Assembly: GCA_029260965.1 (NCBI GenBank)
Contig: JAJDCG010000001.1
Coordinates: forward strand, 89,221-153,220
Reading direction: 5' to 3'
Length of the DNA stretch: 64,000 bases
Origin: Candidatus Levyibacteriota bacterium
GTDB taxonomy: Bacteria > Patescibacteriota > Microgenomatia > Levybacterales > UBA12049
A program made the translations under genes and the position numbers. This document shows, in pieces, positions 1,876 to 47,996 of the stretch (positions are counted from its first letter, which is position 1; the number at the start of each line of letters is the position of its first letter). The notes beneath the pieces were generated by a model. That model ran no database searches. It was not told the origin of the DNA and saw nothing but the letters and a program-made list of their open reading frames with translations.

Positions 1876-2862
1876 TTATTGGTTTTTGAGAGCCTCGCTG
1901 TGTTCTTTTTCAAATTGTTTACTACCAACATCTTTGGTTTGAGATTTAATCGCGTGGATTTTATCCAGTTGATAGACAAGATAACCACCAAGCACCATCA
2001 GGAGGATGGCAGAGAAAAAGTTGAGGTCAATACTTGGTGGTAAGGTGTTTTTTACAATTATTGGTACGATGTTTCCATGGTTGTCAATTTCGGTTTTTAA
2101 GACATCCTGCCATGGCCAAATTTTTCTAATTGAACCGAGCATAAAGCCTGAAAGTATAGCAATAGATATGTCGTGATGGTTTTTAAAAAGCCAGGATAGC
2201 ACTCTTGCGAAAAGCGATATTCCAACGATTGTACCGAGAAAAAAAACACCGAGTGTTAAAAAGTCTTTTCCTGTTACAGCGTATAATACCTGTTGGTATT
2301 TACCTAGAAGAAGAAGAATAAAAGAACCTGAAATTCCAGGAAGAATCATGGCTGTGATGGCTATCATTCCACTTAGGAAAAAAAATGGTAGGGTAGCTGG
2401 TGTTTGACCTGGTACAAGACCTACGATAAGATAGGCAAATACAGCTGATAGAATAAAGCTAATTTTGTCTGATGGATCCCACTTAATAATTCTTTTAAGC
2501 ACTACGAAGACTGAAACAAGAACTAATCCAAAAAAGAATGACCAGATATATACTGGGTACTCAGTGAGGAGAAGTGACAATATGTTTGACAGAGTTAGAA
2601 TAGCTATTAAGAGACCCGTTCCCAAGGGTATTAAGAACTTGAATGGTGTTAGTTTTAGAGCCTCTATTACTTTGCCACGCAGCAGGAGTCTGACTACGTC
2701 GCCTGTGACTGTTTTGATAGAGTAAAGAAGCTCTTCGTAAATTCCTGCCAGAAAAGCAATTGTTCCGCCTGAAACGCCTGGGATCAGGTCTGCTGTTCCC
2801 ATACCAAGTCCTGTTAAAAAAAGCCTAAAGCGATCTTTGAAAGCTTTGGGGAGTTTTATCAT
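1876..2862 (-). CDS. DUF368 family membrane protein (putative undecaprenyl-phosphate transporter)
   Basis: It is polytopic and carries two internal repeats, LIPGVSGGTIAFLAG and ILPGISGSFILLLLG (PG.SRSG.T-like), as in DUF368. Confidence 0.6.
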   Translation of the reverse strand: MIKLPKAFKDRFRLFLTGLGMGTADLIPGVSGGTIAFLAGIYEELLYSIKTVTGDVVRLLLRGKVIEALKLTPFKFLIPLGTGLLIAILTLSNILSLLLTEYPVYIWSFFFGLVLVSVFVVLKRIIKWDPSDKISFILSAVFAYLIVGLVPGQTPATLPFFFLSGMIAITAMILPGISGSFILLLLGKYQQVLYAVTGKDFLTLGVFFLGTIVGISLFARVLSWLFKNHHDISIAILSGFMLGSIRKIWPWQDVLKTEIDNHGNIVPIIVKNTLPPSIDLNFFSAILLMVLGGYLVYQLDKIHAIKSQTKDVGSKQFEKEHSEALKNQ

Positions 2863-2883
2863 AAAAGTAATTATAGCAGAAAA

Positions 2884-4053
2884 CTATTGTGAGCTTAGTG
2901 CCTGAATGCCAGGGAGGGTGCCGTTTTCAATGTAGAAAAGCATTGCTCCTCCTCCAGTTGAGATATGGGTTATTTTATCTAGATATTCCTTTTTGGAGAT
3001 AGCAGCCAGAGTATCACCTCCTCCAATTACAGACATTGCTTTCTCGTTTTCTGCAATTGAATAGTAGAGAAAGTCTGTTCCTCTTTTGAAAACTGGATTT
3101 TCCATGTAGCCAACTGGTCCGTTCCAGATAATGGTGCCTGCCTGATCTATAATTTTTCCAAACTCTGCTTCCGTCTCAGGACCGATATCTAGTACTTGGT
3201 TATGTGGTTCTATTTCTTCGATTTTTTTAACCTCGCTGGTTTTTCCATTTTTGTCATTTGCAATAATCGCATCTTTAGGTAATTCAAAACGAGTTTTTTC
3301 TTCGCGTGCCAAAGATAATATTTCTTTTGCGGTTTTTATATCCTGTTCTTCAATTGGCCCATTGTCAAAACTGTGCCCCTCGGCAACCAGGAAAGCGTTA
3401 GCAAGACCTCCTCCAAGAAGAAGGTAGTCAGCAACAGTTACAAGCTTGTTTATAAATTTTATCTTGGTTCTTATTTTTTTCCCTCCGATGATTGCAACAA
3501 ACGGTTTCTTGGGATTTTTCATTACCCGATCAAGGATAGTAATTTCTTTTTTCATGAGTAAGCCTCCGTATGAAGGAAGATGTTTGGGAATTCCAACAAC
3601 TGATGCGTGCTCACGGTGACTGACACCAAAGGCATCGTTTACATAGACATCACCAAGTGTTGACAGTTCTTTGGCAAATTCAGGATCGTTTTTGGTTTCG
3701 CCTGGATAAAACCTGATGTTCTCAAGGAGTACAATGTCGTGATTATTTTTTGTTAGTCCTTCTGGGTTTTTCAAAAAATCTTTTACAAAGACTATTTTCT
3801 TATCAGGAAGGTACTCTGCAAGCCTGTTCTTGACTCTTATGAGAGAGTCATCAGAATTTCTTTTTTCAGGTTCAGATAGATGTGCAATAATCACGAGCTT
3901 GTTGTGGTTTTTGAGAAGGTATTTGATAGTAGGAAGAGATTGTTTAATTCTCTGATCATCTGCAATTGAGAGGTTAGGGTTAAGCGAGACATTAAAGTCC
4001 ACCCTTAGAAGAACAGTTTTATTTTTTATTTCAACTTCATCAACAAATTTCAT
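2884..4053 (-). CDS. pgk: phosphoglycerate kinase
   Basis: 389 aa. The N-terminus MKFVDEVEIKNKTVLLRVDFNV and an overall length and fold pattern typical of PGK. Confidence 0.85.
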   Translation of the reverse strand: MKFVDEVEIKNKTVLLRVDFNVSLNPNLSIADDQRIKQSLPTIKYLLKNHNKLVIIAHLSEPEKRNSDDSLIRVKNRLAEYLPDKKIVFVKDFLKNPEGLTKNNHDIVLLENIRFYPGETKNDPEFAKELSTLGDVYVNDAFGVSHREHASVVGIPKHLPSYGGLLMKKEITILDRVMKNPKKPFVAIIGGKKIRTKIKFINKLVTVADYLLLGGGLANAFLVAEGHSFDNGPIEEQDIKTAKEILSLAREEKTRFELPKDAIIANDKNGKTSEVKKIEEIEPHNQVLDIGPETEAEFGKIIDQAGTIIWNGPVGYMENPVFKRGTDFLYYSIAENEKAMSVIGGGDTLAAISKKEYLDKITHISTGGGAMLFYIENGTLPGIQALSSQ

Positions 4054-7769: not shown

Positions 7770-7784
7770 CAGTCGTTGTATATT
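7756..7784 (+). promoter_or_regulatory. sigma70-type promoter of hsp20 (-35 TTGACA, 17-nt spacer, -10 TATATT)
   Basis: TTGACA at 7756-7761 and TATATT at 7779-7784. A strong SD (GGAAGGAGGTG) precedes the ATG at 7812. Confidence 0.55.
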
Positions 7785-7811
7785 AGTGCTAATAGGAAGG
7801 AGGTGAAGAAG

Positions 7812-8243
7812 ATGGCATACGATTTGATTCCAAATAGATTTTTATCATTTCCGGGAAATTCGTTATCGTCTATTTTTGATGACGATGAGTTCTTTAATTC
7901 TCCTGTAAGCCAAAATGGTCTTTCTATCTCAGAGGATGAGAAAAAAGTCTATGTAGAAGCTGCAATACCAGGTGTGAATCCTGATAATGTAGAGGTTACA
8001 TTTCATGACGGATACCTCTGGATAAGAGGTGAACAAAAAAAAGAGGAAAAAGATAAAAAGAGAAAGTTCTACAGGCAGGCTGCTACATCTTTCTCATACA
8101 GAGTCGCCGTACCAGGTGAGATAGATCAAAATACAGAGCCTGAGGCTCACTACAAGCACGGTGTGATGAAGGTGCAATTTGCTAAATCTCCCAAAGTTGA
8201 GCCCAAAAAAATTAAAGTCAACGTTGAGAAGCAAGATAAATAA
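7812..8243 (+). CDS. Hsp20/alpha-crystallin family small heat-shock protein
   Basis: An alpha-crystallin domain: VYVEAAIPGVNPDNVEVTFHDGYLWIRGE...FSYRVAVPGEIDQ...HYKHGVMKVQFAK. Confidence 0.8.
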   Translation: MAYDLIPNRFLSFPGNSLSSIFDDDEFFNSPVSQNGLSISEDEKKVYVEAAIPGVNPDNVEVTFHDGYLWIRGEQKKEEKDKKRKFYRQAATSFSYRVAVPGEIDQNTEPEAHYKHGVMKVQFAKSPKVEPKKIKVNVEKQDK

Positions 8244-8334: not shown

Positions 8335-10521
8335 ATGGACAAGGCATACGATCATAAGAAGTTTGAGGATGATTTATATAATTTTTGGGAGAAAAATGGT
8401 TATTTCAAGCCTGAGATAAATCCTGACGGAAAACCATATTCTATTGTTCTCCCTCCTCCAAATGTAACAGGTACGCTTCATATCGGTCATGCATTTGAAG
8501 GAACGCTTCAGGATATTGCTATTAGATATCATCGCATGCGTGGAGATAAGACCGTTTGGATTCCGGGTACAGATCATGCAGCAATTGCGACTCAGTCAAA
8601 ATTTGAAAAAGAGCTATATAAAAAGCATAAAAAATCAAGGCATGATTTTCCCCGCGAGAAATTCTTTGAGATGGTTAATGAGTTTGCAGTTTCCAATCAG
8701 GATAGAATCTTGGGACAGCTTCATAAAATAGGCTTCTCACTTGACTGGGAGAGGCTTTCTTTTACTTTAGATGAAAAGCGTGAGCTTGCAGTGCGGACTG
8801 CTTTTGAGAAGATGTACAAGGCAGGACTTATTTATAGGGGCGATCGGATAGTTAATTGGGATCCGAAAAGTCAGACAACTGTTGCGGATGATGAGATAGA
8901 GCATGTTAGTCAAAAAGATCCATTTTATTATTTCAAATATGGTCCTTTTATAATTGGAACAGTCAGACCTGAGACAAAATTTGGCGATAAATATGTGGTC
9001 ATGCACCCGAGGGACAAGAGATACAAGGATTATAAACATGGACAAAAAATTGACCTTGAATGGATAAACGGGCCAATGACAGCAACTGTTATTAAGGACG
9101 TGGCTGCGGATATGGATAAAGGATCTGGTGTTATGACGATCACCCCTGCGCACTCTGCAATTGATTTTGAAATAGCTCAAAGACATGGACTTGATATTGA
9201 AAAAGTGATTGATGATAGGGGCATACTTCTTCCAATTGCAGGGGAATTTGAGGGGCAACATATTAAAAAAGCGAGAGCATTGATAGTTGAGAAACTGAGA
9301 AAAAAAGGTCTTGTAGATAGGATAGATGAAAATTATGAGCATAATGTTTCGACAAATTATCGAGGCAACGGTATGATCGAGCCTCAGATTAAAAGACAAT
9401 GGTTTGTTGCTGTTAATAAAGAATTCCGCATTGAAAATTCGAAAATTCCAGGTATCAAATCAGGTTCAGAGGTTACACTTAAGCAAATTATGAAAAAGTC
9501 AGTTGAGGCAGGAGGCGTAAAAATCAAGCCTTTAAGGTTTGAAAAAATCTATTATCACTGGATTGATAATCTCAGAGATTGGTGTATTTCAAGACAAATT
9601 ATATATGGACACCAAATTCCTGTTTGGTACAGAAATGATGATATGTACGTTGGGCTTAAGGCACCCGAGGGAGATGGATGGAAACAGGATACAGACACCC
9701 TTGATACTTGGTTTTCCAGTGGTCTTTGGACTTTCTCAACTCTTGGTTGGCCTGAAAAAACACCAGATCTTAAAACATTTCATCCAAACTCCAATATGAT
9801 GCCAGGATATGAGATTCTTTTTTTCTGGGTTGCTCGCATGATTTTAATGAGCGGATTTTTATTGGGCGAGGTTCCTTTTAGTCGAGTTTATTTACATGGC
9901 ATTGTCCGTGACAAACAGGGAAGAAAGTTTAGTAAATCTTTAAACAATGGCATTGATCCTTTGGAGATGGTTGATAAATACGGAACCGACGCGCTTAGAA
10001 TTGCCCTTATTTTTGGTGCGGGAATTGGAAATGACGTGATGTTTGATGAGCAAAAAGTGAAGGGCATGAAGCATTTTGCCAATAAACTTTGGAATATAGC
10101 GCGGTTTATTGAAGTGAATAAGCAAAAAGCAAAAAGCAGTATGCAAAAAGCAAAAAAAATTGAGGATTTAGAAAAGATTGCAGACAATAAAATTGATAAA
10201 GAGTGGGTGAAAAAAACAGTAAATTTGATAGAAGAAGTCACAAAAAGTTTGGATAATTATAAATTTAATTTAGCTGCAGAAAGGCTTTATGAATTTATAT
10301 GGCATGAGTTTGCGGATGTTTATATAGAAGATGTTAAAAGTAGAATTGATGAAAACTCATTCTCTGTTCTCTGTTCTCTGTTTTCTGTTCAGCTAAAACT
10401 CCTTCATCCCTTCATGCCTTTTGTAACTGAGGCTATTTATCAGGAATTTCGAAAAAACGGGATCTTGACTGAGGGGAAAGAATCGATAATGATTGAGAAA
10501 TACCCTATGCTGAAATTCTAA
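8335..10521 (+). CDS. valS: valine--tRNA ligase (short form)
   Basis: A class I aaRS. The HIGH region is PPPNVTGTLHIGHAF. The KMSKS-like motif is KFSKSLNN. The editing and anticodon-binding regions are valS-like. Confidence 0.8.
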   Translation: MDKAYDHKKFEDDLYNFWEKNGYFKPEINPDGKPYSIVLPPPNVTGTLHIGHAFEGTLQDIAIRYHRMRGDKTVWIPGTDHAAIATQSKFEKELYKKHKKSRHDFPREKFFEMVNEFAVSNQDRILGQLHKIGFSLDWERLSFTLDEKRELAVRTAFEKMYKAGLIYRGDRIVNWDPKSQTTVADDEIEHVSQKDPFYYFKYGPFIIGTVRPETKFGDKYVVMHPRDKRYKDYKHGQKIDLEWINGPMTATVIKDVAADMDKGSGVMTITPAHSAIDFEIAQRHGLDIEKVIDDRGILLPIAGEFEGQHIKKARALIVEKLRKKGLVDRIDENYEHNVSTNYRGNGMIEPQIKRQWFVAVNKEFRIENSKIPGIKSGSEVTLKQIMKKSVEAGGVKIKPLRFEKIYYHWIDNLRDWCISRQIIYGHQIPVWYRNDDMYVGLKAPEGDGWKQDTDTLDTWFSSGLWTFSTLGWPEKTPDLKTFHPNSNMMPGYEILFFWVARMILMSGFLLGEVPFSRVYLHGIVRDKQGRKFSKSLNNGIDPLEMVDKYGTDALRIALIFGAGIGNDVMFDEQKVKGMKHFANKLWNIARFIEVNKQKAKSSMQKAKKIEDLEKIADNKIDKEWVKKTVNLIEEVTKSLDNYKFNLAAERLYEFIWHEFADVYIEDVKSRIDENSFSVLCSLFSVQLKLLHPFMPFVTEAIYQEFRKNGILTEGKESIMIEKYPMLKF
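10362..10389 (+). repeat. heptanucleotide tandem repeat (CTCTGTT x3 plus a variant) inside valS coding sequence
   Basis: The sequence ctctgttctctgttctctgttttctgtt encodes FSVLCSLFSVQ. Confidence 0.6.
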
Positions 10522-10623
10522 TATCTAATTTCTAATATCTAAAAAACATTAAAATTATTGTTTCGAAAATAGATACTCAATACAAGTTGTTATTTTTACC
10601 AATTTGAATTATATTAGTAGGCA

Positions 10624-11001
10624 ATGGGCAAGGATTCTCAAAAAAAAGTTTTTTCCCCGAATATATCCCGATTTATTACCGAAGAAGGTAAAAATCTAGC
10701 CTTTAGTATGGTTGCAACTATGCTTGTTATAGGCATTTTTGTACAGGGATTGTCTCTGACCCACAATCTAAGTAAGCAAGAAGATGCAAGCAATAGGCAG
10801 AAAGAAATAAGTGCAGAGCTGGATTTTTGGAAGGAATTTATCGGCAAAAACGGTGATTATAGGGATGTTTATTACCGTATGGCTGAACTGGAATATAAGC
10901 TTGGAAATATAAATGAGGCAAGGTTGAATCTAGCAAAAGTAGAGGAGCTTGACCCAAATTTCAAAGATGCAGATGTTTTAGGAGTCAAGATAGAAGAGTA
11001 A
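10624..11001 (+). CDS. hypothetical membrane-anchored TPR-like protein
   Basis: One TM helix, then a segment YYRMAELEYKLGNINEARLNLAKVEELDPNF that looks TPR-like. Confidence 0.35.
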   Translation: MGKDSQKKVFSPNISRFITEEGKNLAFSMVATMLVIGIFVQGLSLTHNLSKQEDASNRQKEISAELDFWKEFIGKNGDYRDVYYRMAELEYKLGNINEARLNLAKVEELDPNFKDADVLGVKIEE

Positions 11002-11004
11002 TAG

Positions 11005-11712
11005 TTATTCTTCTTTTTTGTTTTCTTCTTTATCTCCGCTTTCAGCTGGTTTTTCGCCTTCAGGTTTTACCTCTCCATCCTTGGCCTCGCCTTCCTTACC
11101 TTCGCCTTCTTCACCTTCTGCACCTTCTGCGGGTTCTGGTTCTGGCTCTGGTTCAGGTGCGACAAGTTCTGCTATTTTCACAACTGTCTGGTCAGGAGCT
11201 GTGAGTATTTCTACTCCTTCTGGAGCCTTTAAGTCACCGACTAGTATATGGGCATCAAGCTCAGCTAAATGCTCCACGCTTACTTCAATGTTTTCGGGGA
11301 GTTTGTCGGGTAAAGCTTCAACCTCAACTTCAGATAGTGGTTGAAGAAGAAGGCCGACTTTTTCTGCAACAGCTTTAGCCTCGCCTACAATTGCAAGCGG
11401 AACTGTGGTTTTTACTTTTTCTTTGAGGTTTACCTGGTAAAAGTCAGCATGAAGAGGTGTGTGTGTCTCAAAATCCATTTGAAGGTTTTTGACCAGAACA
11501 GGATGAGTTTTACCGTCAAATTCAAGATCAATAAGTCCTGAATCTCCTGCTTCTTTATGAACGTTTTCAAAGTCAGCAAGCTTTACTTGTAGTGCGGTAG
11601 ACTCAAGACCTTTTCCGTAAACATTGCCTGGGAGAATGCCCTCACGTCTGAGATTTTTTACTTTTTTTCCAAGAATAGTCCTTTTTTCAGCAGTGAGCTT
11701 TGGGTGTTTCAT
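11005..11712 (-). CDS. rplY: 50S ribosomal protein L25 / general stress protein Ctc with acidic PE-rich C-terminal tail
   Basis: The N-terminus is KLTAEKRTILGKKVKNLRREGILPGNVYGKG. The C-terminus is EPEPEPEPAEGAEGEEGEGKEGE. The plus-strand Ser/Pro-rich ORF opposite it is an antisense artefact. Confidence 0.8.
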   Translation of the reverse strand: MKHPKLTAEKRTILGKKVKNLRREGILPGNVYGKGLESTALQVKLADFENVHKEAGDSGLIDLEFDGKTHPVLVKNLQMDFETHTPLHADFYQVNLKEKVKTTVPLAIVGEAKAVAEKVGLLLQPLSEVEVEALPDKLPENIEVSVEHLAELDAHILVGDLKAPEGVEILTAPDQTVVKIAELVAPEPEPEPEPAEGAEGEEGEGKEGEAKDGEVKPEGEKPAESGDKEENKKEE

Positions 11713-11784
11713 GTATTTATGTATTTTACCTTAAATTTTCTGCTAAAACAAGCAATTAGTCTTTTGTCTTTGTATAATGTAGAT

Positions 11785-12300
11785 ATGCGGATACTTGGAA
11801 TAGATCCTGGGATTGGGAGATGTGGATGGGGAATCATAGAAGCAAAAGGCAACAAGCAAATAGCAATAAGCTATGGTTGTATTGAGACTGATAAAGACTT
11901 GCCACTTGATACAAGGCTTGAACAACTTTTTGATCAGGTTACAAAAATTATAAAGACTGAAAAGCCAGAGAGCTTTGCAATAGAGGATCTTTTTTTTAAT
12001 ACCAATGCCAAGACAGCAATGGTGGTTGGACAGGCACGGGGTGTAATTCTCTTGGCAGCGGTTAAGGCTAAGCTTCCGATCGGGATTTATACACCGCTGC
12101 AGGTTAAGATGGCGGTCACAGGTTATGGCAGGGCAGATAAGAATCAAATGGGTCAGATGATAAAAGTTTTATTAAAACTTGATAAAATCCCAAAACTTGA
12201 TGATACAGCAGACGCCTTGGCAGTTGCCATAACACATGCATTTTCAAATAAATTCGAAGCACAAAATAAGAAATCCGAAACGATGTCAAAATACAAATAA
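11785..12300 (+). CDS. ruvC: crossover junction endodeoxyribonuclease RuvC
   Basis: MRILGIDPGIGRCGWGII... with the catalytic D/E pattern. The start was taken at the internal ATG at 11785; the upstream residues of the longer ORF are not RuvC-like. Confidence 0.8.
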   Translation: MRILGIDPGIGRCGWGIIEAKGNKQIAISYGCIETDKDLPLDTRLEQLFDQVTKIIKTEKPESFAIEDLFFNTNAKTAMVVGQARGVILLAAVKAKLPIGIYTPLQVKMAVTGYGRADKNQMGQMIKVLLKLDKIPKLDDTADALAVAITHAFSNKFEAQNKKSETMSKYK

Positions 12301-12358
12301 TCAAATACAAAAAAAGAACATTCGGATTTCGAATTTTTAGTGCTATAATCTCAGTAAT

Positions 12359-12931
12359 ATGATTGGTGCTTTAAAAGGAGTTGTTGAACTGAGACAAGAT
12401 CCGACAATTATAATTGATGTGAATGGTGTTGGTTACCGCGTGCTTGTTCCTCTTAGTGTTTCCTCAAAACTAGATGGTTTAGGTTCTAAAATCAAGCTCT
12501 TTACCTACACACATGTCAGGGAAGATGCATTGGAGCTTTATGGCTTTGCTGAGTCAGAAGATTTGAGAGTCTTTGAATATCTGATAAGTGTCAATGGTGT
12601 TGGTTGTCGGACTGCTTTGAATGTTTTTTCAGTGGGGACACGTATGGATATCATGAAGGCAATTACCTCAAATGATGTTAATTTTTTTACATCAGTCCCC
12701 AGACTTGGCAAGAAAAACGCGCAGAAAATAATAATTGAGCTGAAGAATAAAATAGGTGGAGAGGACATAGATCTTTCAGCAGATTCGGGAGATAATGATG
12801 AAGTGATCGGAGCACTTAGATCATTTGGTTATTCAACCAAAGAGGCACAAAGCGCAATTAGTTTATTAAAAGGTGAAGGAGCAACTGTTGAGGAAAAAAT
12901 ACGACTTGCCCTGAAATATTTAGGAAAATAA
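12359..12931 (+). CDS. ruvA: Holliday junction DNA helicase RuvA
   Basis: The N-terminus is MIGALKGVVELRQDPTIIIDVNGVGYRV. The tandem HhH segment is ISVNGVGCRTALNV. Confidence 0.85.
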   Translation: MIGALKGVVELRQDPTIIIDVNGVGYRVLVPLSVSSKLDGLGSKIKLFTYTHVREDALELYGFAESEDLRVFEYLISVNGVGCRTALNVFSVGTRMDIMKAITSNDVNFFTSVPRLGKKNAQKIIIELKNKIGGEDIDLSADSGDNDEVIGALRSFGYSTKEAQSAISLLKGEGATVEEKIRLALKYLGK

Positions 12932-12969
12932 ACTCGAAAACCGAATATCGAAACTAGAAACAATATCAA

Positions 12970-13335
12970 ATGAGAGAAATAAGAAATTCAAAACTCTATG
13001 ATTTAGAAGATAGGACATTACAGTTTGCAAAAGACAATAGATCGTTTGTCAAACAATTACCAAAAACGATCGGTAATATTGAAGATGGAAAACAACTTGT
13101 GAGATCATCAGGTTCAGTTGGCGCAAATTATATTGAAGCAAACGAATCATTTAGTAAAAAAGATTTTGTATTAAGGACTAAGATTTGCCGTAAAGAGGCA
13201 AAAGAAAGTAGGTATTGGTTAAATTTGGTAGATACAAGTGGTGATACCAAGCTTGAGAAAGAGTGGAAACGCTTAATCCAGGAAGCAACAGAGCTGATGA
13301 ACATTTTTGGTTCAATTATAAGAAAGTCTGAATAG
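12970..13335 (+). CDS. four-helix-bundle protein (23S rRNA intervening-sequence protein family, TIGR02436-like)
   Basis: The core YDLEDRTLQFAKDNRSFVKQLPKT...QLVRSSGSVGANYIEANES.SKKDF..R..I..KEAKESRYWL. It is inserted between ruvA and ruvB. Confidence 0.6.
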   Translation: MREIRNSKLYDLEDRTLQFAKDNRSFVKQLPKTIGNIEDGKQLVRSSGSVGANYIEANESFSKKDFVLRTKICRKEAKESRYWLNLVDTSGDTKLEKEWKRLIQEATELMNIFGSIIRKSE

Positions 13336-13363
13336 TTTATAATTTTGATAATTTAAGTTTTGT

Positions 13364-13398
13364 ATTTGTTTCGGATTTCGGGTTTCGTGCTTCGAATT
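13364..13398. repeat. ~35-nt dispersed intergenic repeat copy (tttgtttcggatttcgggtttcgtgcttcgaattt)
   Basis: Its reverse complement matches 22636-22670 at about 31 of 35 positions. Partial copies lie at 12318-12340 and 12932-12969. All copies sit directly upstream of ATG start codons that lack an SD. Confidence 0.6.
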
Positions 13399-13405
13399 TA
13401 AAGTT

Positions 13406-14446
13406 ATGGATAAGTCTAAAACAAAAGTAAAAGAAGTAAAGGAGGTAACACTTGAAGAGGAAAAACTATTCGTATCCCTCAGGGCTTCTTCCTGGGAGGA
13501 TTTTCATGGTCAGCAGAACATAAAGGCATCGCTTCAGATTGCGATAGAAGCAGCAACCAAAAGAGGTGAGGCAATTGAGCATATCCTTTTGTATGGACCG
13601 CCTGGGCTTGGAAAAACCACGCTTTCTCATATCGTGGCACGGAAAATGAAAGCCAATATCAGGGTCACCTCAGGTCCAGCGCTTGAGCGCTCTGGTGATC
13701 TGGCATCAATTCTGACCAATCTTGAAAAGGGTGACATTTTATTTATTGATGAGATTCACAGGCTCAACCCAACAGTTGAAGAGACACTTTATCCTGCAAT
13801 GGAGGATTTCGCGCTTGATATTGTGCTTGGCAAGGGACCTTCGGCGCGTACTGTCAGGCTTGATCTTCCACAGTTTACGATAATTGGCGCCACAACTCGC
13901 GCAGGACTTCTCTCAGCGCCCCTGAGGGACAGATTTGGAGTAACGCATAGACTCAATTTTTATGAAGCAGAGGAACTTGGAAAAATCATTCAGGAAGCAG
14001 CGGGGAAGCTAAAGGTAAAAATAGATACAGACAGTATAATAGAAATTGCCAAAAGAGCGCGCGGTACACCACGTATTGCTCTCAAGGTTCTCAAAAGAGT
14101 TAGGGATTATGCTCAAGTCAAAGGCGGAGGTCATATTGATTTTGCATCAGCCAAGAAAGCTCTTTCTATGCTTGAGGTTGATGAGAAGGGGCTTGATCCT
14201 CTAGATATTAAATTTCTTCGTGCAATTATTGATAAGCATCATGGAGGTCCTGTTGGGATTGAAACAATTGCATCAACCATTTCTGAAGATAGTGGCACGC
14301 TTGAGGACTTGGTGGAGCCATATCTCATGCAGCTTGGATTTATCAAACGTACATCTCGTGGTCGTGTGGCGACCAAGGCAGCCTACGAGCACTTGGGATT
14401 AACACACCCTGAAGACAAAAGCGGCAAACAGGAAAAGTTGTTATAA
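13406..14446 (+). CDS. ruvB: Holliday junction DNA helicase RuvB
   Basis: The Walker A motif is [18 protein letters not shown]. An AAA+ domain is followed by a winged-helix C-terminus. Confidence 0.9.
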
Positions 14447-16338: not shown

Positions 16339-16539
16339 ATGACAAATCCTATTAAAAATATTTTAAATAAAGAAATGAGCAGAAAAGATTTTCTGAGTTA
16401 TTCAGGCATGACTTTATTATCCTTTACAGGAGCTCTGACTATCCTGGGAAAGCTTGAAGATGCAGATCTTCTTAAATTCTACAAAAAACAAACAGTTGGT
16501 TTCGGGTCAGGAAGCTATGGTGGAAAGGAGAAAACATAA
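16339..16539 (+). CDS. small protein with Tat-like (S-R-K-D-F-L) signal peptide
   Basis: MSRKDFLSYSGMTLLSFTGALTILG resembles an S/T-RR-x-F-L-K Tat signal in an RK variant. Its stop overlaps the ATG of the next gene (TAATG). Confidence 0.45.
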   Translation: MTNPIKNILNKEMSRKDFLSYSGMTLLSFTGALTILGKLEDADLLKFYKKQTVGFGSGSYGGKEKT

Positions 16540-18365
16540 TGGCACGATTACCAATACCAGGTTCAGATGATGGAACATGGGGAGATGTGCTCAATGATTT
16601 TTTATCTCAAGAGCATAATTCAGACGGAACACACAATGGAGTAAATGCAGGCTCACTCAAGACCACAGGGGCATCAGTTGTTATTTCAGGTGCAGATGCG
16701 CCAACTACTGGACAAGTTCTCAAAGCAACCAGCGCAACAGTTGCAAGTTGGCAAACGTTGAGCTCAGTTGGAACACCTGAAGTTTTAATTGCTGCTACAA
16801 ACACCGCCCAGGATATAAAAGATGTAGCAGATTATACATGCGATGGAGTCAATGATGAAGTACAGATCAATGCGGCTATTACAAGTCTTGTAACTCTTGG
16901 AGGAAGGGTAGTTCTTAGTTATGGAACTTTTACTGTCTCAGACGAGATTTTGATGAAAACAGGGGTAGAAATATCAGGGCAAGGTCCTGGGACACATGTG
17001 AAAGCATCAGGTTTTTCAGCTGGAAAAGCAATGTTTCGTCTAGCTGATGTCAATGTGCATGCTACAGGAATTTATGACATGTTAATAGATGGAAATTTTT
17101 CGGCTGGTGGAGCGGTTGCTGGTATTGATTATGATAATACAGGTGGCGTTTTTACTGGAGGTGCAATCAGTACTAATTCAGATTGCGCTCATCGTCTGCA
17201 ACGTTTGATTGTCCGAAATACAGGATCAGCTGCGACACCTCGTTATGGTTTTCGTAATATTGGTTCATTTGCGTCAAATTTTGTTAGTGACATTCGTTTT
17301 CAGCAGTGTCGTAATGGCGTATATGTTGACAGTCCAGATTCTTTTTATAGCAATCTTGAAATTTCCTCTGCTGATGGAGTGGGTTTTACTATAGCAGGCG
17401 CCAATAATCGTATCGTCAATTCCAAAGCATATTTTAATGCAACCGATGGATTTCTGATTACTGCCGGACGTAATACGTTGACTGGATGCGAGGCTCAGGA
17501 TAATGGACGTTGGGGATTGAACTTAACTGCTGGGGATTGCAATATCGCTGGGTTTATGGCTGACTCAAATCAGAAAAATGATAATTCAGGTGGTGGTGTG
17601 CTGATTGCAAGTAGTGGGAATAATTTGATTGGACTTGATATTTTTGATCGGGCCCCATCTGGTCATACGTTTCCACAAACAAGAGGTGTGTCATTTTCTG
17701 GTACAAGAACTAATAATGTCGTCATAGGTAGAGTTCATGTGCCTAGTGGCACAAACTATGTTGAAGGCATTACATCTGGTGCCAGCAATTTAATTGAAAT
17801 TGTTACCAAACAAGGTAGTACCGCACAATCGTTAACAACAACTCGTATTAACGCTCAGGACACAAAACCTACTGGTGCTTTATTTCAAAATTTTGATCGA
17901 CAACTAGCAGGTAATACGGCTATTGCTCCTACTTCGGGTACTATGCGACTGGTATCTATTTGGTTACCAGCTGGCACTCTAGTAACATCAGCTACTTTTT
18001 GTGCAGGTACAACTGCCATGTCTGGTGGTACACATGGATGGGCTGCTCTATATGATTCTTCACTTGCTTTAGTTGGATCTCAATCAGCAAATGACACAGG
18101 AATTACGTGGGCAGCTAATGCAGCAAAAACTTTTACGTTTGGCTCTACTTATACTACGACCTACACAGGACTGTATTATGTTGGGCTTTTAATGGTTGCA
18201 AGTACTATGCCAACAATGTGTGGTCAAACAATTGGCATTGGGATATCGGGCATGGCGCCTGCAATGGGGGGGAACTCAACTACAAGTCTGACAACTACAG
18301 CGCCTAACCCTGCTGCTGCAATTTCTGGAGGTACTGCAGGCATGATCTACTGTTATGTTGGTTAA
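16539..18365 (+). CDS. right-handed parallel beta-helix (pectate-lyase-like) protein, tail-fibre/adhesin-like
   Basis: 608 aa and GC-richer. Repeated N/G/T-rich beta-helix rungs, for example NNRIVNSKAYFN..NTLTGCEAQDNGRWGLNLTAGDCNIAG. The C-terminus is Gly/Thr/Ala-rich. The conserved N-terminus is MARLPIPGSDDGTWGD. Confidence 0.55.
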   Translation: MARLPIPGSDDGTWGDVLNDFLSQEHNSDGTHNGVNAGSLKTTGASVVISGADAPTTGQVLKATSATVASWQTLSSVGTPEVLIAATNTAQDIKDVADYTCDGVNDEVQINAAITSLVTLGGRVVLSYGTFTVSDEILMKTGVEISGQGPGTHVKASGFSAGKAMFRLADVNVHATGIYDMLIDGNFSAGGAVAGIDYDNTGGVFTGGAISTNSDCAHRLQRLIVRNTGSAATPRYGFRNIGSFASNFVSDIRFQQCRNGVYVDSPDSFYSNLEISSADGVGFTIAGANNRIVNSKAYFNATDGFLITAGRNTLTGCEAQDNGRWGLNLTAGDCNIAGFMADSNQKNDNSGGGVLIASSGNNLIGLDIFDRAPSGHTFPQTRGVSFSGTRTNNVVIGRVHVPSGTNYVEGITSGASNLIEIVTKQGSTAQSLTTTRINAQDTKPTGALFQNFDRQLAGNTAIAPTSGTMRLVSIWLPAGTLVTSATFCAGTTAMSGGTHGWAALYDSSLALVGSQSANDTGITWAANAAKTFTFGSTYTTTYTGLYYVGLLMVASTMPTMCGQTIGIGISGMAPAMGGNSTTSLTTTAPNPAAAISGGTAGMIYCYVG

Positions 18366-18440
18366 GCCTTATTAAGATCGGGACTCCAACACGCTTAATA
18401 TTTTAGCGAACATAAATATATATAGATAAATAAATTAATA

Positions 18441-18733
18441 ATGGCACGATTACCAATACCAGGTTCAGATGATGGAACATGGGGAGACACCCTTAACGAA
18501 TTCTTATTAGTTGAGCACAACTCTGATGGCAGTCGAGATAATGCTAATACGAGCTTGGGGGTTTAGCCTTTATAGGTGGATCAAGTGCTACTGAGCCTCC
18601 AATCAGCTCAGCGGTTTGGGTGACAAATGCATTGGTTGTGCCAAGTGGTACGACCAAAGTCAGACTAATTGATTTTTTTAAGGGTGCAGGAACTGTTAGA
18701 ATTGGGCGAATGTGTATTAGAAAATCCGGAACT
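18441..18733 (+). pseudogene. decayed partial paralogue of the beta-helix gene (41-codon N-terminal ORF, then a frameshifted C-terminal-like remnant)
   Basis: 18441-18487 is 47/47 identical to 16539-16585. It encodes MARLPIPGSDDGTWGDTLNEFLLVEHNSDG... and stops at 18566. The +2 frame at 18569-18733 is open and encodes ...ALVVPSGTTKVRLIDF, which resembles IWLPAGTLVTSATF of the full gene. Confidence 0.55.
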
Positions 18734-22556: not shown

Positions 22557-22635
22557 ACCATTAACTTACTACAGATTTGATTTGGTTGTCAAATAAGGTG
22601 GCTTTTTTGATAAACTGGAATAGTCCAGGAAATAA

Positions 22636-22670
22636 AAATCCGAAGCACGAAATCCTAAATTCGAAACAAT
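22636..22670. repeat. ~35-nt dispersed intergenic repeat copy (aaatccgaagcacgaaatcctaaattcgaaacaat) in the 5' leader of the P-type ATPase gene
   Basis: The reverse-complement match to 13364-13398. It lies between a putative promoter (TTGTCA at 22586-91) and the ATG at 22691. Confidence 0.6.
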
Positions 22671-22690
22671 TTCAAAATTTAAAAATCCAA

Positions 22691-25375
22691 ATGACAGAAA
22701 CTGCCCATTTTTATCAATTAACAAAAGAAAAGCTTTTTGGTCTTTTCAAAACTTCTGATCAGGGACTGTCTGAGGTAGATGCGAAAAAGCGTCTTGATCA
22801 AAATGGTGTCAATCAGCTAACAGCAAAGAAAAAAGTATCTGCCTTCGCGCTCTATTTGTCCCAGTTCAAAAATACACTGACACTTATTCTTATTGCCGCC
22901 TCAATTTTAGTACTATTTATTTATTACTTCGGAGAACGTGATCCATCTGACCTCATAGAAGCTGGGTTGATACTGGCGATTGTTTTTATGATAACGCTTC
23001 TTGGATTCATCCAGGAGTACAAAGCAGAAAAAGCTATTGAATCATTAAAAAAACTACTTTCATATAAAACAAAAGTGTTAAGAGATGGAACAGAGCGAGA
23101 GGTTGATGTGGCAGATTTGGTAACAGGAGATATAGTAATCATTGAGGAAGGTAGCAAGACACCAGCAGATATGAGATTGCTTGAAGCGTACTCTCTCATG
23201 ATAAATGAAGCATCACTCACTGGTGAATCGGTGCCTGTTTCAAAATTTACGGATCTGATTTCTGGTAATACGCAGATTGCAGATCAGAAAAATATGCTTT
23301 TTGCAGGAACATCTGTGACATCAGGTCGTGGGATTGGCTTGGTTGTAGCTACGGGAGATGGTACTGAGATAGGTAAAATCGCCAAGAATGTTGCTGAGGT
23401 TGAAAAAGAAGCAACACCAATTCAAAAAAAATTATCAAGAATAGGGAAGATAATCGGGCTTGTTGTCTTGGCAATAAGTCTTGTTGTTTTCGTATTTATT
23501 GTTTTCTTTGCTGAAGATTTTACTAGTCAGCCAATCCTACAGCGTATTATTCATTCATTTATCGCAAGTGTTGCGCTTGCTGTTGCGGCAATTCCTGAAG
23601 GGCTTCCTGCGGTAGTTACCATTTCGCTTGCATTTGGTACGCAAAGAATGCTCAAAAAAAACGTGTTGGTTAGAAAGCTTAATTCAGTCGAGACACTGGG
23701 ATCAACAGATACCATTTGTTCTGATAAAACAGGGACTCTCACAAAGGGAGAAATGACTGTCAGAAAAATTTATTTTGGAGGAAAACTGATTGAAGTTACA
23801 GGTGCAGGTTATGTAACTAAAGGAGAATTCCTTTTTGGGGATAAAAAGATAGGTGTTAAAGAAGTAGCCCCGCTTTTGGAATGTGGTTTCTTTTGTAACA
23901 ATGCAAAACTTGAAGACAAAAATATTTTGGGAGATCCCACAGAGGCAGCACTTCTTGTTTCATCTGCGAAGGCCGGTATAAATCCCAAAGGAAAAAGAGT
24001 TTTAGAAATTCCTTTTAGTAGTGAACGAAAAATGATGTCTGTAGTAGTTGAAAAAAATGACAAATTGGTAATTTATACCAAGGGTGCTGTGGAAGAAGTT
24101 TTGAATCATTCAAATATTTCCCCCACTGAAAAAAGAAAGATTTTAGCAGTAAATGAAAAGTTGGCAGGAGAAGCTCTACGTGGTCTTGCATTTGCTTTTA
24201 AAGAAATATCAAAATCAGAATTTGTGAAACAAAAAAATTCTTCGAGAGGCTCAGGACAGAAAAAACTCGAGTCAGGTTTAACTTTTCTAGGTATTCAAGC
24301 CATGATTGATCCGCCGCGTACTGAGGTTGCGCCACTTATCAAATCATGTCAGGAATCAGGAATACGAGTCGTGATGATAACAGGAGACCACATAGATACG
24401 GCGCGTGCTGTTGCCCGTGAGATCGGTATAACAGGTGAGGGTTTGACAGGTTTAGAGCTTGAGAAAATGAATGATTCAGAGTTTATAAAAACAGTTGAAA
24501 ATATAAGTATATATGCAAGAGTTAATCCAAATACAAAAATGAGAATTATTTCAGCATTAAAGAAAAAAGGTCATATTGTTGCGATGACAGGAGATGGAGT
24601 AAATGATGCGCCAGCTTTGAAAAAATCAGATATTGGTATTGCAATGGGAATAACGGGTACTGATGTTGCTAAGGAGTCAGCTGATATGGTTTTGTTGGAC
24701 GATAAATTTTCAACGATAGTTGCATCAGTTGAGGAGGGGCGAGGTATATTCCACAATATTCGTAAATTTGTGACATATCTTCTCTCGTGCAATATTGGTG
24801 AAGTGATGTTGGTTTTTGTATCAGTAATGCTATTTCAGAAATTGCCATTATCTGCGACAATGCTTCTCTGGATAAATATCGTTACTGATGGGATACCAGC
24901 AATTGCACTTGGTGTTGATCCTGCGGAGAAAAATATCCTCTCACACAAGCCTGCAGTTTTTCAAAAAAATATTATTACGCGCAGGCTTTGGGTTGAGATG
25001 ATTGTCTTTGGAGTTTTATTAACCATTGCTTGTATTGGTATATTTTTGATTGATCTTCCATTTGGTTTGGAGCGGGCACGTGGTGCTGTATTTACGGCAA
25101 TAGTGTTTTTTGAGCTGGTTGGCCTTTTTTTAATACGTGATGATTATAAAGTATCATTTTTTTCAAATCCCTGGCTTCTCATATCGGTTTTTGTGACAGT
25201 AATTATTCAGCTTATGATTGTATATATCCCTGTAATTGCAAGTCTTTTTGAGATAAAAGCAGTTGATTATCTGGATTGGATTTATATAATGGCAGCATCA
25301 GGTCTGATTTGGTTGATTTTTAAATCTGCAGAAAATATACTTGATCAATTTTCATCGATGAGAATGGATGCCTGA
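22691..25375 (+). CDS. P-type cation-transporting ATPase (P2/Ca2+-Mg2+ type)
   Basis: DKTGTLT at the phosphorylation site, [21 protein letters not shown], and IPEGLP in TM4. It lacks a CPC heavy-metal motif. The start was set at the internal ATG at 22691, after the leader repeat. Confidence 0.85.
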
Positions 25376-42386: not shown

Positions 42387-42856
42387 CTGACTATAGCCAT
42401 CGCTGGCCGTACTTTCTCCATTTCCTCCTTTAGTTGGTTGATGAACCTAAAATTCTCAAATACCTTGAAGATACGCACAAATTGACTGGTTATATTAACG
42501 TTACGATCCCCGAGCCAAATGGGATTTGCAGGTCGCAAATCCGGGAATTGTGCGAACAAATCAGTATATCTCTGAGGTTCGACCCAATCCTTATACTTTT
42601 CACTCCATTTTTCTTGTTCTGCAAAGGGTATGAGGTGATCATCCAGTTCTATCAATACTTTTTTGTGATTCACCTGTAAGTTCGAGCCGATGTTAAACAA
42701 TACTTCTCTTCTCGCGTCACGACCTCCAACCTTAAATTTTATAGCAGAGCCATAAGCAATATCGATTGCTTCTTCGATTTTTATTCTCCATGATGAAAGA
42801 CTGCCGTGAGCGTTTTCTATCTTGTTAATTAGGGTTTGTTTTGTTGATATGCCCAT
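42383..42856 (-). CDS. hypothetical protein
   Basis: 157 aa. Its C-terminal 30 codons are covered by repeat copy A at 42413-42503. A decayed paralogous C-terminal fragment lies at 45302-45468. Confidence 0.4.
   Translation of the reverse strand: MGISTKQTLINKIENAHGSLSSWRIKIEEAIDIAYGSAIKFKVGGRDARREVLFNIGSNLQVNHKKVLIELDDHLIPFAEQEKWSEKYKDWVEPQRYTDLFAQFPDLRPANPIWLGDRNVNITSQFVRIFKVFENFRFINQLKEEMEKVRPAMAIVS
42413..42503. repeat. ~90-nt direct repeat copy A (about 80% identical to 45362-45451)
   Basis: Shared core ttgaa.at.c.cacaaatt.actggttatattaac.ttacgatcc.cgagc. Confidence 0.6.
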
Positions 42857-45305: not shown

Positions 45306-45468
45306 ATATAAATAATAGCATTTATCCCTGTATAGGAACTACTACTGGCTTCACTTTGTTCATTTTTTCTTAGTTGGCCAGTAAACTTGAAATCTTCAAA
45401 CATCTTGAATATGCACACAAATTTACTGGTTATATTAACCTTACGATCCTCGAGCTCAACCAAAAGTT
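45302..45468 (-). pseudogene. C-terminal gene fragment paralogous to the 3' end of gene 42383-42856 (repeat copy B)
   Basis: The minus-strand translation ELLVELEDRKVNITSKFVCIFKMFEDFKFTGQLRKNEQ... matches WLGDRNVNITSQFVRIFKVFENFRFINQLKEEMEK. The frame opens straight after an in-frame TAG stop and the first in-frame Met is the internal M of KMFEDF. Confidence 0.5.
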
Positions 45469-45493: not shown

Positions 45494-45994
45494 ATGAGTA
45501 AACTAATTACATGCATTTGGTTTGCGGGCAATGACGGAGAAGAGGCAGCAAACTACTACATAGATACTTTTAATTCTGCACCAGGTGATCACAGTGCAAA
45601 AATAGGAGATATTACAAAATCTCCTAAAGCATCAGAAGAAGTTTCCGGAAGACCTGAAGGATCTGTTATGACAGCTGAATACGAGCTTGATGGAATAAGC
45701 TTCATGGCTCTCAATGGTGGTCCTGTTGATCAATTCAAACTTAACGGCGCAACTTCATATATTGTGGAGTGCGAAACACAAGAAGAAATTGATTTCTTCT
45801 GGGAAAAACTTTCAGCAGATCCTGAAGCTGGACAATGCGGATGGTGTCAAGACCGCTTCGGTGTCACATGGCAAATAGTTCCAAGGATTTTGGATGAACT
45901 GATGAGAGATCCTCAAAAAGCTGAGGCAGTAACCGCTGCTTTTATGCCAATGAAGAAAATTGACCTTGAAACAATCCGAAAAGCCGGCGAATAA
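45494..45994 (+). CDS. VOC-superfamily (PhnB/3-demethylubiquinone-9 3-methyltransferase-like) protein
   Basis: MSKLITCIWFAGNDGEEAANYYIDTF...GQCGWCQDRFGVTWQIVP. The start was set at the internal ATG at 45494. The upstream extension of the longer ORF is the repeat. Confidence 0.7.
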   Translation: MSKLITCIWFAGNDGEEAANYYIDTFNSAPGDHSAKIGDITKSPKASEEVSGRPEGSVMTAEYELDGISFMALNGGPVDQFKLNGATSYIVECETQEEIDFFWEKLSADPEAGQCGWCQDRFGVTWQIVPRILDELMRDPQKAEAVTAAFMPMKKIDLETIRKAGE

Positions 45995-47102: not shown

Positions 47103-47996
47103 ATGTCAAATAAAAAAATTGTCCCTCATCTATGGTTTGATACTCAGGCTGTTGAAGCAGCTGATTTTTATGTATCGACATTTGGTGAAGGATCAAAAGT
47201 TACCAACAAGTATAAACTTCACAATACGCCATCAGGAGATGTAGACACAGTGAGCTTCAATCTCTTGGGAATAGATTTTATGGCAATTTCAGCTGGACCT
47301 TTTTTCAAATTTAATCCATCAATTTCATTTATTGTTGGCTGCGAAACCAAAGAGGAGGTAAATAGACTCTGGGAAAAATTATCAGAAGGCGGAAAGACGC
47401 TTATGCCTCTTGATAAATATCCATTTTCTGAACGCTTTGGCTGGATTCAGGATAAATTTGGCCTTTCATGGCAGCTAATCTTTACACATCCTGAGGGTGA
47501 TCAAAGACCCAGAATTGTCCCAGCTCTTCTTTTTACAAATGAAGTTTCTGGAAAGGCAGATGAGGCGATTAGGTTCTATTTATCTGTTTTTAAAGATTCC
47601 AAGATGGGCAGCAAAATGACTTACGGACCAGATCAAAAACCAGAAAAAGAAGGAAATATCATGTTTGCTGACTTCCAGCTTTTTGACACATGGATGGCTG
47701 CAATGGATAGCTCTCTAGATCACAAATTCAATTTCGGTGAAGCAATCTCATTTATCCTTAACTGTGATACGCAGGAAGAAATAGATTATTATTGGGAGAA
47801 ATTATCTTTTGTTCCAGAATCAGAGCAATGCGGCTGGCTCAAGGATAAGTATGGTATCAGCTGGCAGATTATTCCAAAGATTCTTGACGAGATGCTTGAG
47901 AAAGGTAGCAAAGAGCAGGCAGAACGTGTCACACAAGCCTTTCTTAAAATGAAAAAATTTGATATCAAAAAACTCAAAAAGGCTTATACTAAATAA
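47103..47996 (+). CDS. tandem-domain VOC/PhnB-like protein
   Basis: There are two repeats, each with the pattern [18 protein letters not shown]...[14 protein letters not shown]. The second repeat has [16 protein letters not shown]. Confidence 0.7.

Follow-up and report, generated by a model that had tools for sequence, protein, structure and literature searches.

Inverted repeats around the ruv genes of a Candidatus Levyibacteriota genome as probable arms of a PF05635 gene cassette resembling intervening sequences

Results

We analyzed a stretch of 64,000 nucleotides (nt) from a Candidatus Levyibacteriota bacterium (contig JAJDCG010000001.1; this whole 64-kb stretch is called the window below), in which a dispersed repeat had been noticed close to the genes ruvC, ruvA and ruvB and in the leader of a P-type ATPase gene. 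The ruv genes lie in the neighbourhood valS, TPR protein, L25, ruvC, ruvA, ruvB, fn3 protein, and the spacer between ruvA and ruvB holds one small additional gene (Table 1). Its product is a four-helix-bundle protein matching PF05635 (E 5.5e-13, 49.5 bits for a cut-off of 33.8) and TIGR02436 (72.3 bits, cut-off 24), the nearest solved structure being 2rld. Two long inverted repeats, called arms in the following, enclose this gene and form a cassette with it. The left arm, which is the one carrying GAATATC, opens with the stop codon TAA of ruvA and holds the ATG (12970) and the first codons of the four-helix-bundle gene. The right arm (13344-13402) ends 5 nt ahead of the ruvB ATG (13406) and probably also includes the A/T-rich positions 13336-13343, which immediately follow the TAG stop. 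In the minimum-free-energy fold of 12915-13410, positions 12929-12989 are paired with 13344-13400. PADLOC profiles assigned the four-helix-bundle protein to no defence family at E <= 0.01. As for Rfam, no match reached the gathering score in the window region, in the canonical hairpin or in the 17 loci scanned, and the scans returned only sub-threshold matches to generic long hairpins (of the miRNA precursor kind) and two tRNAs.

Table 1. Positions in the window of the ruv genes, the four-helix-bundle gene and the repeat arms
Feature	Position	Strand	E, independent arm models, window scan	Remarks
ruvC	11704-12300 (longest open reading frame)			gene caller start 11785; ends at 12300
Arm A, full, type 1 (GAAGCAC)	12249-12307	+	3e-5	inverted-repeat pair I1; E 3.7e-7 (window-derived model), 2.9e-5 (independent model)
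Arm a', shortened	12319-12337	-	0.045 (fifth-ranked in the window)	outer 17-19 nt of the arm, aaattcgaaatccgaat on the A-rich strand
ruvA	12359-12931			stop codon TAA at 12929-12931
Left arm, type 2, with CGAATATCG	12929-12989	+	8e-9	left-arm model E 7.9e-9; right-arm model E 3.5e-6
PF05635/TIGR02436 four-helix-bundle gene	12970-13335	+		121 residues; same strand as ruvA and ruvB
Arm B, right arm, type 1	13344-13402	-	8e-11	inverted-repeat pairs I1 and I2; E 2.4e-8 (window-derived model), 8.2e-11 (independent model)
ruvB	13406-14446
Arm C, solo, type 1	22635-22703 (22636-22701 in the window scan)	+	6e-11	E 6.1e-11; no inverted partner

The first-pass annotation had described the repeat as a dispersed series of sites of about 35 nt, found in both orientations and each lying a few nt before an ATG. 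We scanned the window with hidden Markov models (HMMs) of the arm trained solely on arms of cassettes from other metagenomes. These independent models place five copies first in the window (E from 6e-11 to 0.045), the first background match having an E of 2.3, so that the repeat is real and consists, as stated, of dispersed inverted copies. However, the copies are five and not four, the one at 12249-12305 (+), which overlaps the 3' end and the stop codon of ruvC, having been missed. According to the same scores, both copies that had been called partial (12929-12989 and 12319-12337) are genuine, the second being a shortened arm and not a full copy. The string reported in front of ruvB is present but begins one base further (13365-13399 instead of 13364-13398), and it does match the reverse complement of the ATPase copy (22636-22670), at 29 of 34 ungapped positions instead of 31 of 35. 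On the other hand, the idea of short sites preceding start codons had to be abandoned: the copies are hairpin arms of about 55-70 nt, two of them contain the ATG of a gene (12970 for the four-helix-bundle gene and 22691 for the ATPase) and one lies in the 3' end of ruvC.

One could wonder whether these copies resemble each other merely by chance, as stretches of A/T-rich, low-complexity intergenic DNA may do. The arms are indeed A/T-rich and internally repetitive, and shuffled arms submitted to a gapped aligner still reach an identity of 0.565. However, the E values of the independent models go down to 6e-11, with a clear gap before the background, and no inverted repeats in the entire window are longer than two that these copies form, namely the pairs I1 (12249-12305 / 13344-13400, 57 nt, 79% complementary) and I2 (13352-13399 / 22636-22683, 48 nt, 85% complementary). 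Compared pairwise, the three full copies are identical at 43-45 of 57 positions (75-79%). A search for the consensus GGRTTTCGTGCTTCGRA, which the first-pass annotation had recommended, gave 3 sites for 0.37 expected, and an exact 28-nt arm pattern is common to more than 120 genome stretches among the matches listed. The copies are thus neither the only ones nor comparable to random A/T-rich sequence; they lie far beyond chance, and this explanation, whose probability is negligible, is already refuted.

Two copies have become part of neighbouring genes. Arm A overlaps the final 17 codons of ruvC and its stop codon (12298-12300). With arm a' it forms a decayed hairpin devoid of gene (12249-12340), followed by TTTTT; the RNA fold of 12240-12345 pairs both arms (-18.9 kcal/mol, z -4.5, with none of 200 shuffles as stable). 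Arm C is partnerless and folding gave no hairpin for it (z -0.4). Its inner ATGAC motif provides the start codon of the P-type ATPase (22691), the first codons (MTET) being located inside the arm, and homologous ATPases begin at the same alignment position.

The closest relative (GCA_029260905.1, referred to as L201) has a RuvA that is 82% identical. Its RuvC ends with a different and shorter tail of 10 residues, whereas the last 17 residues of the window RuvC are encoded by the arm. In L201, a gene for a methyltransferase of 263 residues separates ruvC from ruvA and is absent from the window. These differences, seen when 12249-12300 of the window is compared with 5120-5976 of L201, hint at a deletion at the repeat. 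Another string of the window, TAATATCTAATTTCTAATATCTAAAAAAC at 10519-10560, right after the valS stop codon, resembles an arm of the CTAA type described below; it has no partner, 10517-10627 does not fold (z -0.07), and the models trained on CGAA arms do not give it a significant score.

The association between gene and arms was examined in the reciprocal direction with 80 metagenome loci chosen solely by the identity (64-80%) of their protein to that of the window. At least one arm is flush with the gene in 63 of these 80 loci, and direct alignment reveals complementary flanks in 64 of them (62-88% over about 50-69 nt). As in the window, the ATG of these homologous cassettes is located inside the arm, at arm position ~43. 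Neither ruvA nor ruvB flanks the gene in any of the 80 loci; the cassette therefore occupies many different contexts, with host flanks ranging from 33 to 65% G+C. Of 66 upstream neighbours, 57 are co-directional with the cassette. The stop codon of this neighbour frequently lies 39-48 nt before the cassette ATG, which corresponds to the first bases of the arm (TAA). The downstream neighbour is co-directional in 49 of 63 loci and typically starts 79-97 nt past the cassette stop, the distance from the right arm to this start being about 5-25 nt in about a third of the loci. The closeness to start codons is thus due to the insertion of the elements in short operon spacers.

We also searched genomes for the 28-nt pattern YCGAAGCACRAAAYNNNAAATYCGAAAC, which fits all three full copies of the window. 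The resulting counts are minimum values and do not amount to a census, and most hosts are metagenome-assembled genomes. Among the matches listed, the hosts belong to Planctomycetota, Desulfobacterota, Aminicenantes, Omnitrophota, Patescibacteria, Verrucomicrobiota, Lentisphaerota, Binatia and others. The conserved stretch of the arm extends over about 65-70 nt and is built of degenerate heptamers arranged in tandem and in a fixed order (CGAAGCA, CGAAATC, CGAAATC, CGAAACA, AATTCAA, ATGACCA, AAATTCA, AATGACC). Calculated on 126 arms, the autocorrelation reaches 0.48 for a lag of 7 and 0.43 for a lag of 14, and the same period is visible in each copy of the window.

In these listed loci, the arm HMM detects at least 222 arms, and 82 of 101 neighbouring pairs are convergent, mostly 0-60 nt apart. 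At least 76 elements are complete gene-less hairpins, whose stems are almost uninterrupted and whose length ranges from 89 to 194 nt (median 152); the fold of one example has a z of -8.1. Many elements combine one GAAGCAC arm with one GAATATC arm, hence the recurrent internal mismatches. When the arms are 337-459 nt apart, they enclose an open reading frame (ORF) similar to PF05635 in all three pairs, with its start at arm position ~43 in the motif CAAATGAC. An iterated HMM search retrieved only five four-helix-bundle ORFs in 120 listed genome loci, which means that most pattern matches are gene-less. Up to three elements are present per 8 kb in these loci, and three in the 64-kb window.

Phages are apparently not the principal carriers of the family. 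Only two arm matches were found in 2.9 million viral contigs (IMG/VR), at L205 2231-2357 and L206 3715-3766, one of which is a complete gene-less hairpin and the other a solo arm. None of the phage records encodes a relative of the four-helix-bundle protein, and the plasmid records contain distant relatives only. No element was found inside rRNA among about 200 loci, and an rRNA motif was matched once in 205 sequences. In this sole locus (L003), the 23S motif is at ~5016 (-) and an arm at 7779-7846, about 2.7 kb apart; whether this arm lies outside the rRNA gene was not checked.

The copies had also been contrasted, for their lack of a Shine-Dalgarno (SD) sequence, with many other genes of the window said to possess strong GGAGG sites. 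This was overstated, since a 5-nt SD core precedes only 14 of the 73 ORF-based gene calls of the window, and a 4-nt core 27 of them. Starts without SD and with a TATAAT-like box at most 17 nt before the ATG are numerous, for example at 2862, 4855, 7005, 8335, 12359, 20355, 39100, 43208, 46657, 52561 and 59031. The lack of SD is therefore a property of the genome and not of the repeat, and these starts suggest that leaderless or very-short-leader mRNAs are widespread in this Patescibacteria-like genome.

It could still be argued that the arms have a function in translation or in protein binding and act, in place of the SD, on initiation at the adjacent downstream start codon. In L201 as in the window, ruvB starts 5-8 nt past a hairpin and has no SD, and a subset of unrelated cassettes elsewhere have an ATG 3-10 nt past the arm, again with no SD. 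In addition, arm conservation exceeds that of synonymous sites and is directed toward the family consensus rather than toward the partner alone, and a similar role has been proposed for TAACTGA repeats located by starts that lack a ribosome-binding site (PMC4679880). However, in other genomes, 25 of the 52 genes that follow a cassette have an ordinary SD-like core between arm and start, SD-poor and TATAAT-adjacent starts are found throughout the window, and one full copy lies within the 3' end of ruvC. The gene-less hairpins argue in the same direction: stop codons are as near to them as start codons, 11 of 65 lie between convergent genes (46 between co-directional and 8 between divergent ones), and type 1 and type 2 arms show no preferred direction with respect to transcription (9 vs 8). 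We consequently find a role in initiation improbable. The first-pass annotation had also suggested a miniature mobile repeat that prefers 5' leaders; the elements are indeed dispersed and of the miniature inverted-repeat type, but they show no preference for 5' leaders.

Ordinary transcription signals of the adjacent genes, either promoters or intrinsic terminators, would be another way to account for hairpins that are intergenic, one of which is followed by TTTTT in its decayed form at ruvC and separated from the ruvA ATG by a TGcTATAAT box (12341-12349) that comes after the shortened arm 12319-12337. However, a terminator scan of 12150-13500 remained empty and the promoter scan did not exceed the level of shuffled sequences, with no site in the arms, in agreement with the earlier view that the repeat is not a simple promoter. 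The TGcTATAAT box is not part of the repeat, and it is also conserved in L201, which lacks this repeat. Moreover, the stems are 50-70 bp long, A/U-rich and mostly located within co-directional operons, and the same arm sequence is found in phyla that use different promoter types. It is thus highly unlikely that the hairpins are such signals.

We then compared the evolution of arms and genes. At third codon positions, the cassette genes retain an identity of 0.42 vs 0.26 when shuffled, which is near saturation, and the arms an identity of 0.67-0.71, a modest excess over the shuffle control with gapped alignment given above. The heptamers of the arms exist in CGAA, CTAA and CCAA versions. The two arms of a cassette carry the same version in 57 cases and different ones in 3, and the CTAA version is dispersed over the protein tree. 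RNAalifold gave no structure for 69 cassettes, because the modular arms align badly; heptamer concordance and a subset of orthologous sites were used instead.

Such sites were informative. Between ruvA and ruvB, the window has a gene with mostly CGAA arms, L201 a gene-less CTAA hairpin of 118 nt (z -4.8) and a more distant relative a hairpin of 117 nt made of another unit (z -1.7). At a second shared site, seven metagenome cassettes can be compared with the gene-less locus L127, which has the same two flanking genes and whose hairpin retains both arms together with the first few codons of the gene. Four heptamer-equivalent stem pairs are G:C in a single one of the seven cassettes and U:A in the remaining six, and in all eight stem pairs are changed on both sides. 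The gene-less hairpin therefore corresponds to a cassette minus the interior of its ORF, and the complementarity of the arms has been maintained through compensatory change. Most simply, gene-less hairpins would thus arise by internal deletion. In this small sample, orthologous sites are always occupied by a cassette or a gene-less hairpin and never empty. The L127 contig carries, besides its gene-less hairpin (816-954), a complete cassette (2570-3036) at a distance of 1.6 kb.

Finally, other repeats are present in the window. A direct repeat of 92 nt (16536-16627 / 18438-18529, 82% identical) spans, with its first copy, the start of an ORF at 16539 that begins with MARLPIPGSDDGTWGD, and could correspond to a pair of paralogues or to a 5' module that has been duplicated. 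Two families of diverged direct repeats (62-80% identical), one at 45734-45818, 47304-47388 and 47727-47811 and the other at 42430-42515 / 45370-45455, probably lie within paralogous coding sequences.

Discussion

We propose that a PF05635 cassette similar to intervening sequences, together with degenerate derivatives of this cassette, accounts for the repeats of the window, which would be its terminal inverted arms, and we regard this as the probable explanation of the whole. The identity and the anatomy of the cassette are the parts in which we have strong confidence. The cassettes have a common anatomy, their arms belong to one family that is spread across phyla and associated with the gene, and they have deletion derivatives. 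The complete unit is composed of a left arm containing the ATG, the gene coding for 121 residues and a right arm just past the stop codon, placed in a spacer and on the strand of the operon. Loss of the gene interior would leave a gene-less hairpin of 90-190 nt, and further decay would leave shortened or solo arms. Such arms can provide a neighbouring gene with its start codon, as for the ATPase, or with a new C-terminal tail, as for RuvC. The cassette would be transcribed along with its operon and its arms would pair in a stem of 50-70 bp burying the start codon of the four-helix-bundle gene. RNase III could then cut this stem, by analogy with the S23p-type intervening sequences of 23S rRNA, so that the insert would be released and the flanking cistrons separated undamaged. 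Concerning this mode of action, we consider that arguments for and against balance each other. The family would have spread between genomes and sites, with selection keeping the arms complementary and near the consensus; judging from its distribution, we lean towards a mobile family.

The closest known elements are the S23p-type intervening sequences of 23S rRNA in Coxiella burnetii and Leptospira. The latter are also elements of about 430-500 nt with a PF05635/S23p ORF, complementary termini and a long stem, they display tandem heptamers before and into the start of an ORF whose SD is poor or absent, they exist in gene-less or decaying versions, and their patchy distribution suggests horizontal transfer. 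The intervening sequence of C. burnetii is 428 nt long and contains an S23p (PF05635) ORF. Its terminal inverted repeats pair in a 28-bp stem, and three tandem heptamers with a degenerate fourth lie directly before the ATG, their number varying among strains; the first heptamer is where RNase III cleaves (PMC4990558). In the literature, we found heptamers linked with S23p only in that paper (PMC4990558). It is also reported that rRNA insertions in the candidate phyla radiation sometimes encode a protein of the PF05635 family (10.1101/2024.02.27.582315). On the other hand, the heptamer is CGAAATY here and GACAGAT in Coxiella, and our family differs by its many gene-less hairpins and solo arms per genome. 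Excision by RNase III, which is known for S23p-type intervening sequences, is assumed by analogy for the cassette of the window.

Several points weigh against this proposal. The cassette is inserted in the spacer of a protein operon (ruvA-ruvB) and not in helix 9, 25 or 45 of 23S rRNA, and the genes of the loci were only approximately delimited, from their ORFs. G.U pairs are not in excess over A.C oppositions, either in gene-less hairpins (237 vs 253) or in cassettes read in the mRNA sense (182 vs 195); there is therefore no RNA-specific signature, and the complementarity of the arms could be kept at the DNA level. Arms are only slightly more complementary to their own partner than to foreign arms (45.1 vs 41.4, median rank 25 of 69), which places the constraint mainly on the family consensus. 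A joined-flank search of about 200 loci revealed no empty site, exposing orthologues with cassettes or gene-less hairpins instead. No target-site duplication is recognisable, the ends being TAAAT...ATTTA, so that a TA or TAA duplication would be inseparable from the inverted repeat, and no transposase adjoins any of the cassettes examined. As a consequence, the case for mobility is that of the distribution of the family.

Part of these data would suit a conventional miniature inverted-repeat element, acting at the DNA level, whose arms are recognised, in duplex form or as hairpins of single-stranded DNA, by a transposase or recombinase encoded elsewhere and whose gene is a passenger. Such an element would explain the terminal inverted repeats, the small size, the several copies per contig with gene-less, shortened and solo derivatives, and the variety of contexts in hosts of 33-65% G+C, and the absence of a G.U over A.C bias is what one expects from complementarity kept in DNA. 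However, no cassette examined encodes a transposase, its full-length form coding for the four-helix-bundle protein of 121 residues only, and the lack of a recognisable target-site duplication and of any pair of filled and empty sites in about 200 loci does not favour this explanation either. Gene and arms have remained together across a near-saturated synonymous divergence, with the ATG inside the arm, which is unlike mere cargo, and distant PF05635 genes display the same architecture with unrelated heptamers. We thus judge a DNA-level element with a passenger gene to be unlikely.

These distant PF05635 genes (32-38% identity), located on plasmids of cyanobacteria and Chloroflexota, are enclosed by inverted arrays of heptamers of their own (AATTCAA, AATTCGT, AATTCGC, AATCGTA / AATCCCC, GCAAGTC, AGTAAAA, GGATGAA), with inverted-repeat scores of 26-67 vs 14-20 at neighbouring genes. 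Distant genes of this kind (L207-L216, on cyanobacterial, Chloroflexota and Bacteroidota plasmids) are usually co-directional within operons. Among the carriers of such analogous cassettes are Nostoc punctiforme PCC 73102 (pNPUN02, NPUN_RS35560), Dolichospermum flos-aquae (pAfl69, HGD76_RS24565) and Anabaena cylindrica (pANACY.01, ANACY_RS28330). Some are found in CRISPR-cas loci, either between csx2 and cas1 or between cas2 and cas1, and others in operons resembling restriction-modification systems, between a helicase and an N6-methylase.

Other families of intergenic palindromes deserve comparison. Correia elements of Neisseria, ERIC and Rickettsia palindromic elements are imperfect palindromes of 100-170 nt that occupy operon spacers or gene ends and are co-transcribed. 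Correia hairpins are RNase III substrates and the Correia elements have a TA target duplication, while Rickettsia palindromic elements add peptide segments to proteins, which the tail given by arm A to RuvC resembles. To our knowledge, these families are each limited to one genus or family and have neither heptamers nor a full-length form with a PF05635 gene.

Heptamer repeats as such are not new. The cyanobacterial STRR, said to go back to Mazel et al. in 1990, are reportedly intergenic tandem repeats of heptamers. In Planktothrix, we found a four-helix-bundle gene flanked by arrays of AATCCCC (= GGGGATT). Arrays of GGGAATC in Xanthomonas, with about 70 convergent pairs per genome, and of GGGGAYT in Nostoc also consist of intergenic units with a period of 7, often in convergent pairs able to form a stem-loop; they are transcribed, and keep their positions among related genomes with a variable number of units (PMC4692102). 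However, they have been treated as simple repeats forming G-quadruplexes, with no link to PF05635 (PMC4692102), whereas the family described here is A/T-rich and degenerate, with differing heptamers in a fixed order. The TAACTGA heptamers of Beggiatoaceae, Cyanobacteria and Bacteroidetes mostly precede, by a few nt, starts at which ribosome-binding sites are rare and, like our arms, are common to distant phyla with no known mechanism of transfer (PMC4679880). Unlike them, they are direct repeats, with a single inverted case reported, and neither enclose a gene nor form a hairpin (PMC4679880). Lastly, the Avd protein of diversity-generating retroelements belongs to the same four-helix-bundle superfamily (PMC10053308), but no reverse transcriptase and no template or variable repeat was found near the window gene.

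A broader hypothesis would be that PF05635 proteins and inverted heptamer arrays constitute one widespread and unrecognised class of self-propagating intervening sequences, present in rRNA but also in the operon spacers of mRNAs. The protein, a pentamer, would be the specific binder of the heptamer hairpin or its mobility factor, and the decay of cassettes would be a major source of intergenic heptamer repeats such as STRR, GGGAATC and related ones. We put this forward as a tentative idea, more doubtful than not.

The role of the S23p protein of intervening sequences and the origin of the intergenic heptamer repeats of cyanobacteria, xanthomonads and sulfur bacteria have been separate puzzles, and both meet here in one anatomy, in which a hairpin of heptamer arrays buries the start codon of a four-helix-bundle gene. 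It is encountered in a dozen phyla or more, at sites other than rRNA and with compensatory change keeping the arms complementary. For genome annotation, this anatomy accounts for spurious ORFs of the 'FRISDFGFR' kind, for odd C-terminal tails such as that of RuvC and for start codons donated by a repeat, as in the ATPase. Heptamer repeats are thereby tied to S23p-type proteins outside rRNA, and this link could be tested in culturable carriers, such as the plasmids of Nostoc, Anabaena and Dolichospermum, by looking at RNase III processing and at the binding of the protein to the heptamer stem.

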